Under the pieces are notes generated by a model. The model did no database searches. It saw nothing but the letters and a program-made list of their open reading frames with translations, and was not told the DNA's origin. 64,000 nt of DNA from Escherichia coli (GTDB lineage Bacteria; Pseudomonadota; Gammaproteobacteria; Enterobacterales; Enterobacteriaceae): NCBI RefSeq assembly GCF_003334335.1, contig NZ_QOWQ01000001.1, one strand, 5' to 3'. Position 1 is the stretch's first letter. Each line of letters begins with the position of its first letter. Made by a program: the position numbers and the translations under genes. Shown here piece by piece: positions 16,723 through 16,828 of this stretch.

Positions 16723-16828
16723 GTCCCCTCGCCCCTTTGGGGAGAGGGTTAGGGTGAGGGGAACAGGCCGGCACTGGCGCGAATATTTACCCTCACCCCG
16801 GCCCTCTCCCTGAAAGGGCGAGGGGGAA
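16723..16828. repeat. About 105-bp composite imperfect palindrome (two inverted copies of a ~37-bp CCCCTCGCCC...GGGTGAGGG unit); unclassified dispersed-repeat-like element
   Basis: Left arm CCCCTCGCCCCTTTGGGGAGAGGGTTAGGGTGAGGGG; reverse complement of right arm CCCCCTCGCCCTTTCAGGGAGAGGGCCGGGGTGAGGG is nearly identical; non-coding gcvP-ygfF spacer. Confidence 0.5.

Follow-up and report, generated by a model that had tools for sequence, protein, structure and literature searches.

The stretch of DNA analysed here, a window of 64 kb (64,000 nucleotides) from Escherichia coli, carries gcvT, gcvH, gcvP, ygfF and bglA in an order and with a sequence that agree with those of E. coli K-12 (Table 1). 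All coordinates are positions in this window unless they are marked K-12. The spacer between gcvP and ygfF contains a palindrome that starts approximately 35 nt past the hairpin of the gcvP intrinsic terminator and ends approximately 85 nt upstream of the ygfF start codon. The terminator itself folds as RNA with an energy of -13.5 kcal/mol (z -2.8), and the position after it that an earlier note on this DNA had given for the palindrome is borne out. Neither the RefSeq/PGAP annotation nor the K-12 records show an annotated feature beneath the repeat. Two mechanically called open reading frames run across it, at 16666-16842 (-) and 16749-16874 (-), and are 58 and 41 aa long.

Table 1. Genes and features at the gcvP-ygfF locus (window coordinates).
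Feature	Position	Strand	Description
gcvT	12146-13240	+	ORF list
gcvH		+	ORF list; order gcvT > gcvH > gcvP
gcvP	13772-16645	+	ORF list
gcvP intrinsic terminator	16668-16689	+	GGCGC-TTCG-GCGCC, that is AAAGGCGC-TTCG-GCGCCTTT, then TTTTT; context, outside the repeat
Arm A outer flank	16692-16724	+	BoxC "tail" and a further conserved stretch, common to other pair loci
Arm A	16726-16761	+	BoxC/TMECO no. 11 (type A, one stem mismatch)
Spacer	16762-16788		AACAGGCCGGCACTGGCGCGAATATTT; holds a small internal GCC/GGC stem
Arm B	16789-16824	-	BoxC/TMECO no. 10 (type B, one stem mismatch)
Arm B outer flank	16825-16875	+	GGGGGAAAA tail and approximately 45 nt
ygfF	16912-17655	+	SDR-family oxidoreductase, downstream gene; ORF list and K-12 annotation
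bglA		-	after ygfF; ORF list

Using an inverted-repeat search, we found arms of 39 nt each at 16725-16763 and 16787-16825 that are 82% complementary and have 23 nt between them. Thus, the inverted-arm palindrome is real, and its 37-nt unit, CCCCTCGCCCCTTTGGGGAGAGGGTTAGGGTGAGGGG, corresponds to 16725-16761. The earlier note had described a near-exact reverse complement around a 26-bp core. The copies are indeed inverted, but at 82% complementarity they are not near-exact, and the core is present, its length varying from 23 to 29 nt with the choice of arm boundaries. The mismatches between the arms sit in two internal loops, TTT versus TTCA and TTA versus CCG. Arm A consists of the C-rich stem CCCTCGCCCC, the loop TTT, GGGGAGAGGG, the loop TTA and GGGTGAGGGG, and arm B, read on the - strand, consists of CCCTCGCCC, TTTCA, GGGAGAGGG, CCG and GGGTGAGGGT. 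The two units are arranged convergently (head-to-head): the + strand carries type A, the - strand type B.

The palindrome had been set apart from the REP elements in the earlier note, and we agree. The REP core GCCKGATGCGRCGY, allowing up to 2 mismatches, has 14 matches in the window and none in 16700-16850, and we rejected REP as an identity for the palindrome because its sequence is unrelated to that core. The full 37-nt Stern-type REP consensus has no match anywhere in the window. As the earlier note had remarked, true REPs do occur elsewhere in the window: canonical cores are found at 20342-20492, where four of them form a BIME-like cluster (near 20.4 kb), and at 50343-50356.

A different family, made up of dispersed, non-coding repeats with G/C tracts in E. 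coli and related bacteria, does account for the palindrome. This family was first noted as BoxC in the 1990s and has since been described as PIT (2000), TMECO (2015) and HPGQ (2016). It was first seen at envM (fabI), and in Bachellier's survey BoxC is reportedly approximately 56 bp long and present in approximately 32 copies. We know of no function or mobilisation mechanism for the BoxC family, nor of any demonstration that it is mobile. At fabI, the downstream fabI-yciW spacer has no BoxC, and the upstream ycjD-fabI spacer carries one, which is TMECO no. 9.

Petrillo et al. 2008 (PMC2267715) provide 22 BoxC members in the supplementary FASTA file E.coli_BoxC.txt, among which eco:11 is identical to 16715-16765 (-) and eco:10 to 16785-16835 (+). 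In Holder et al. 2015 (PMC4666352), Table 1 gives TMECO no. 10 as CCCTCGCCCTTTCAGGGAGAGGGCCGGGGTGAGGGT, type B with a mismatch (mm), at K-12 3,045,989-3,046,024, and TMECO no. 11 as CCCTCGCCCCTTTGGGGAGAGGGTTAGGGTGAGGGG, type A mm, at K-12 3,046,087-3,046,052. We observed exact matches of no. 11 to 16726-16761 (+) and of no. 10 to 16789-16824 (-), and the published K-12 positions fall between ygfF (which ends at 3,045,901) and gcvP (which begins at 3,046,168). Given that both arms match published BoxC/TMECO strings exactly, the palindrome that the earlier note could not place in a named family is a catalogued inverted BoxC (PIT/TMECO) pair, and the locus itself is already in print. The pattern 5'-CCCTCNCCC N3-6 GGGNGAGGG N3 GGGNGAGGG-3', taken from Holder et al. 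2015 (PMC4666352), matches only 16726-16760 (+) and 16790-16824 (-) in the 64-kb window. The same paper reports 23 TMECO copies in MG1655 and five "tandem inverted" sites where they form pairs, always A with B, naming 10+11 among them. It also gives a set of 63 BoxC loci, and copy numbers of 0 for Salmonella and 143 for Enterobacter asburiae LF7a. We re-found all five published K-12 inverted pairs, and the A+B rule (a TTA loop and a CCG-like loop on opposite strands) holds here and at the four other K-12 pair loci. The internal-loop mismatches between our arms are the published differences between types A and B.

The two arms have also been catalogued from another structural point of view. Kaplan et al. 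2016 (PMC5100583) place HPGQ 33 (HPG1) at K-12 midpoint 3046063 and HPGQ 32 (HPG2) at 3046013, between ygfF and gcvP. HPGQ 33 is the motif of arm A and HPGQ 32 that of arm B, each corresponding to the G-rich half of its arm, and they represent a reading of the same DNA as G-quadruplex (G4) rather than triplex. Like the BoxC family as a whole, the pair, whose arms with their tails are members eco:10 and eco:11, is intergenic, GC-rich and imperfectly palindromic. However, BoxC is usually described as a single unit of 50-56 bp, whereas the gcvP-ygfF composite holds two units.

We used blastn to count the copies of the repeat. Of 5426 complete E. coli genomes, 5409 contain a 41-nt version of the unit; the median number of places per genome is 17 and the maximum is 30. 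For a 23-nt core of the unit, 0 chance matches are expected from shuffles of the window. The earlier note had reasoned that an element unique to this locus would count against its proposal, and this copy number shows that the unit is not unique.

We next consider how the pair might fold. A 121-nt stretch containing it is predicted to form a single long hairpin, with energies of -76.6 kcal/mol for the RNA of the + strand (z -6.7), -73.7 kcal/mol for that of the - strand (z -6.9) and -37.5 kcal/mol when folded as DNA (z -5.3). In each case 0 of 200 shuffles folded as well, which bears out the long hairpin of the earlier note. The single-arm hairpins alone have energies of -23.7 and -18.4 kcal/mol as RNA and -10.1 and -8.4 kcal/mol as DNA. 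Thus, the long inter-arm hairpin beats the summed single-arm hairpins both as RNA and as DNA, although these ViennaRNA energies take in neither Hoogsteen pairs nor G-tetrads, so the comparison of the hairpin with a triplex or a G4 is incomplete. On this modelling, the inter-arm hairpin should dominate in the paired context whenever both arms are single-stranded. Both arms also satisfy a G-quadruplex pattern of four tracts of G3+ with loops of 1-7 nt, at 16739-16761 (+) in arm A and at 16790-16810 (-) in arm B.

Experiments on members of the family have revealed several alternative structures. As judged by CD and NMR, TMECO A and B oligonucleotides adopt a stable intrastrand purine-motif triplex whether or not they carry the stem mismatch, and in vivo DMS probing at one TMECO site is described in the same report (Holder et al. 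2015, PMC4666352). The arms studied here fall into the published triplex-tested classes, type A mm and type B mm. The triplex was shown on isolated oligonucleotides, however, whereas for paired genomic arms the predicted stability of the inter-arm hairpin far exceeds that of a hairpin within a single arm. Members of the HPG motif classes can undergo ion-dependent switching between hairpin and G-quadruplex in vitro, as measured by CD (Kaplan et al. 2016, PMC5100583).

We observed no sign that the inter-arm helix is selected as an RNA structure. Among the 36 predicted inter-arm pairs, none shows compensatory change in an alignment of five paralogous pair copies (covariation term +0.8). The helix is explained by the inverted orientation of two homologous repeats. 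A scan of 16300-17300 with Rfam returned no family at its gathering threshold; the best matches were generic miRNA-precursor hairpins with at most 33.5 bits against thresholds of at least 40 bits, and we rejected them. No U-run follows the hairpin, since GGAAAAGCGTG comes next on the + strand and ACTGTCTGAGCAC on the - strand. The palindrome was therefore also rejected as an intrinsic terminator, a role for which the published PIT assays were likewise negative. A promoter and terminator scan of 16500-17000 found no terminator and no sigma-70-like promoter. The same scan missed the evident, textbook-like gcvP terminator, and its negative result thus carries little weight.

Given that A+B pairs occur at several loci, we compared the sequences between and around their arms. 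The spacer, 28-29 nt long, is conserved at gcvP-ygfF, yijF-gldA, fepB-entC and alx-sstT (z 6.5-7.8, 0 of 1000 shuffles), with the consensus GAACAGGCCrGCAcyGGyGCGAAnATTTA across the four pair loci. The fepB-entC and alx-sstT pairs are those of K-12, and the yijF-gldA pair is found in other strains. This conservation does not extend to hrpB-mrcB, whose pair has a different, shorter spacer. Approximately 35-45 nt outside arm A are also similar between pair loci (z 3.3-7.3): the 45 nt to the left of the arm resemble those at yijF-gldA and alx-sstT (z 6.4-6.5, 0 of 1000 shuffles) and, more weakly, those at fepB-entC (z 3.3). The outer flank of arm B, taken as 55 nt to the right of the arm, is similar to the yijF-gldA copy only (z 8.9), and in strain 50579417 the megablast alignment of the yijF-gldA spacer with 16708-16875 has 87.5% identity over 168 nt. 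We considered the right flank as an independent repeat and rejected it, as it is single-copy at blastn sensitivity, with one place in each of 3027 genomes. That the larger unit extends to the arm B side would thus be suggested by the yijF-gldA paralogue only. Since four pair loci share the spacer and some of the flank, the pair behaves as one composite unit. We found no mention of the shared spacer and flanking sequence in the papers on PIT (Hoyne & Maher 2000) and TMECO (Holder et al. 2015, PMC4666352).

The K-12 pair at lldD-trmL (L007 330-456) is arranged differently, being divergent rather than convergent, with the outer tails facing each other 59 nt apart. Spacer-like sequence, AAAAGGCCGCACTG, comes after its type B arm. 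This arrangement suggests mosaic or rearranged composites.

The pair is not present in all strains. A K-12-type spacer with the pair is found in 3027 of the 5426 E. coli genomes (56%). In UTI89 and O157:H7, 16690/16692-17718 is replaced by 126-128 bp (L008 1631-1758 and L009 1633-1758) that carry a REP-like hairpin and no BoxC. The replaced 1.03-kb segment comprises the BoxC pair, ygfF, a hairpin and the last codons of bglA, and its replacement makes gcvP and bglA direct convergent neighbours. The hairpin is a perfect 10-bp one at 17674-17699, CCGGATGCAA-CAAGTA-TTGCATCCGG, situated between the convergent ygfF and bglA, and is probably a bidirectional terminator. Thus, ygfF is a presence/absence gene in E. 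coli, and in most strains it is present or absent along with the pair. A rare third allele, seen in strain 2020CK-00188 (L010 687-746 versus 16689-16898), has ygfF after a 60-nt spacer without BoxC and represents either an ancestral empty site or a deletion of approximately 205 bp. The three allele types are identical up to 16689-16691, the end of the T-run of the gcvP terminator, and then diverge, and the point of divergence coincides with the start of the similarity to other composite copies. The pair lies at the exact left breakpoint both of the ygfF indel and of the short-spacer allele.

A second polymorphic locus is yijF-gldA, which carries a BoxC A+B composite, 87.5% identical to the one at gcvP-ygfF, in 641 genomes. 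In K-12 and most other strains, a REP/BIME lies between the same flanks, which read ...GTTTCAGA, then the variable insert, then TCAAACTCCCGG... (L011 1485-1660 versus L012 2275-2400). Since either a BoxC composite or a BIME is found between identical flanks, two unrelated repeat families alternate at this site. We saw no truly empty allele at yijF-gldA. No clean target-site duplication was found at the junctions of either polymorphic locus; the junction sequences hold only ambiguous T-runs or TCAGA/TCAAA pentamers, and we claim no duplication. Nor did we find a transposase that could be a candidate for moving the pair.

We also searched for pairs beyond the enterobacteria. A collection-wide genome scan for GGGTGAGGG-N15-45-CCCTCACCC gave pairs at at least 120 loci, and the matches listed are examples from non-enterobacterial groups rather than a taxonomic census. 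Among these matches, BoxC-like inverted pairs are abundant in distant phyla, with pairs in Bradyrhizobium (L028-L091), Pseudolabrys, Methylovirgula, Polaromonas (L019-L023), Gallionellaceae, Solimonas, Methylomirabilota (L093-L095), Planctomycetota, Archangium and a metagenome-assembled genome (MAG) of candidate division FCPU426 (L109-L132). Both arms fit the strict TMECO pattern in 9 of the 133 pairs among the matches listed (at least 133 in total). In the FCPU426 copies, an arm with the CCG loop faces one that bears the CCCTCGCCCC mismatch at a distance of approximately 23 nt, and this pair is the core of a palindromic, MITE-like element of approximately 190 nt with outer inverted termini CGGAACTATGCACTTGGCG...CGCCAAGTGCATAGTTCCG, of which there are at least 3 subfamilies. 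The striking conservation of the arm sequence in distant phyla is easier to reconcile with a sequence-specific function, or with a protein that recognises the arms, than with pure junk DNA.

These features invite comparison with other repeat systems. REPINs are inverted REP doublets that are mobilised by RAYT transposases. The BoxC pair resembles REP, BIME and REPIN elements in being built from a short extragenic palindromic unit, often as inverted doublets with fixed spacing, in post-gene spacers. Its doublet with a conserved 28-29-nt spacer at four loci is a REPIN-like trait, and there is a further link in that a BIME occupies the yijF-gldA site in strains without the BoxC composite. However, the BoxC sequence is unrelated to the REP core, the pair is not a member of the REP/BIME family, and we know of no RAYT-type gene that accompanies BoxC. 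With ERIC/IRU and other bacterial MITEs the pair shares a length of approximately 100-200 bp, a long imperfect palindrome, an intergenic location and presence/absence polymorphism. At gcvP-ygfF the MITE-like traits are the inverted arms and the presence/absence alleles, without a convincing direct duplication. The pair differs from those elements in that no target-site duplication was found and in that, across phyla, BoxC conserves the inner arms, not the outermost termini.

Across 56 E. coli strains, spacers with TMECOs vary much more than control spacers, and at palindromic TMECO sites partial deletions often leave a hairpin (the "palindrome effect"); large missing regions occur in only approximately 10% of the comparisons, and the genes beside TMECOs have no common function in the data reported there (Holder et al. 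2015, PMC4666352). Members of the family are found in all gene-orientation contexts and have no associated transcription-factor motif (Kaplan et al. 2016, PMC5100583). The G4 set of that study, BoxC motifs included, is enriched in MutL-bound replication-error regions with Z = 10.6 (Hasenauer et al. 2024). Maher's group reportedly observed that PIT elements block polymerase in vitro, whereas replication, transcription and conjugation were unaffected in vivo, and published assays detected neither promoter nor terminator activity. Within the literature that we searched, we found no functional work later than the papers cited here. The evidence for instability is comparative and could reflect placement of BoxC in spacers that were already variable.

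Taken together, we consider it probable, with some reserve, that the pair is a selfish or neutral, structure-prone composite repeat that spreads or persists in the manner of a MITE or REPIN. The pair probably came into the gcvP-ygfF spacer, or was lost from it, as a unit of approximately 150-200 bp, and it would be tolerated there because it lies in non-coding DNA past the gcvP terminator. In physical terms it would mainly give rise to structure-prone DNA: when the arms become single-stranded, they may pair with each other into a long hairpin or cruciform, or each arm may fold on itself. Such structures could stall replication and promote local deletions and rearrangements, and local instability would be the only consistent consequence of the pair. 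We do not think that the pair is a dedicated regulator of gcvP or ygfF. The conservation of the arms across phyla is the main observation that this selfish or neutral view does not fully explain.

A bolder proposal, which we offer tentatively and judge unlikely without discounting it, is that the A+B pair with its 29-nt spacer and outer flanks (approximately 150-185 bp, approximately 16692-16875) is the replicative unit of a REPIN- or MITE-like mobile element acted upon by a putative hairpin-recognising enzyme. Solo BoxC copies would then be decay products, the pairs in Polaromonas, Methylomirabilota, FCPU426, Bradyrhizobium and other groups would form one cross-phylum superfamily, and the element would compete with BIMEs for post-terminator sites. 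Arm conservation across phyla keeps alive both this REPIN/MITE-superfamily reading and the reading in which a protein recognises the arms.

Three further readings are each possible and poorly supported here. The first would place the function of the palindrome at the level of RNA, where, upon read-through from gcvTHP or as part of the ygfF leader, the hairpin would protect an mRNA 3' end or act as a back-up terminator in the manner of REP/BIME. The great stability of the hairpin on both strands (-76.6 and -73.7 kcal/mol, z about -6.8), the co-directional arrangement of gcvP and ygfF around the spacer and the precedent of REP are consistent with such a role. However, the palindrome sits downstream of a canonical intrinsic terminator of gcvP, it lacks a following U-run and scored no terminator-like site, its five paralogous copies show compensatory change at none of 36 pairs, and the PIT assays gave no terminator or promoter activity. 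Moreover, 44% of E. coli genomes do not have the pair at gcvP-ygfF, and members of the family occur in every gene-orientation context, and we therefore hold an RNA-level role to be quite improbable.

Equally doubtful, in our estimation, is a regulatory DNA switch of the kind proposed by Kaplan et al. (2016), in which the arms toggle between duplex, hairpin/triplex and G-quadruplex, or bind a protein, and so tune the ygfF promoter or supercoiling. Both arms do fit G4 and triplex motifs, ion-dependent hairpin/G4 transitions have been observed by CD, in vivo DMS probing of one TMECO has been reported, and the exact arm sequence is kept in distant phyla. Yet no sigma-70-like promoter scored in 16500-17000, no transcription-factor motif is tied to the family, and the neighbouring genes share no common function. 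Furthermore, where the arms are paired, folds of a single arm should lose out to Watson-Crick pairing of one arm with the other, and the pair is missing in many strains.

The repeat could also have been selected as an "instability generator", kept for adaptive local variation or as a recombination hot spot, as Holder et al. (2015) speculated. This would accord with the greater variability of TMECO loci relative to controls, with the fact that the ygfF indel and the short-spacer allele both have their left breakpoint exactly at the pair, and with the alternation of BoxC composite and BIME at yijF-gldA. The same data nevertheless fit a by-product of structure-prone selfish DNA, second-order selection for intergenic mutability is hard to sustain, and large regions are missing in only approximately 10% of comparisons. 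We give this reading little credence. Lastly, a chance palindrome unique to the gcvP-ygfF spacer can be dismissed, as 0 of 200 shuffles fold as well and the unit is found at approximately 17 places per genome in 5409 genomes.

The BoxC pair and its exact gcvP-ygfF locus were already in the literature and carry little weight as a discovery. What this analysis adds is the composite-unit behaviour of the pair, its presence in 3027 of 5426 genomes together with its position at the edge of the ygfF polymorphism, and the pairs in distant phyla. BoxC repeats are left unlabelled by RefSeq/PGAP, so they keep being rediscovered. This matters for annotation, as spurious ORFs of 41-58 aa run across the repeats and automatic annotation is likely to turn BoxC-type repeats into spurious low-complexity "hypothetical proteins". 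For the biology of the family, the shared spacer and flanks, the position of the pair at a breakpoint and its alternation with a BIME at yijF-gldA provide handles for asking whether BoxC pairs are mobile.
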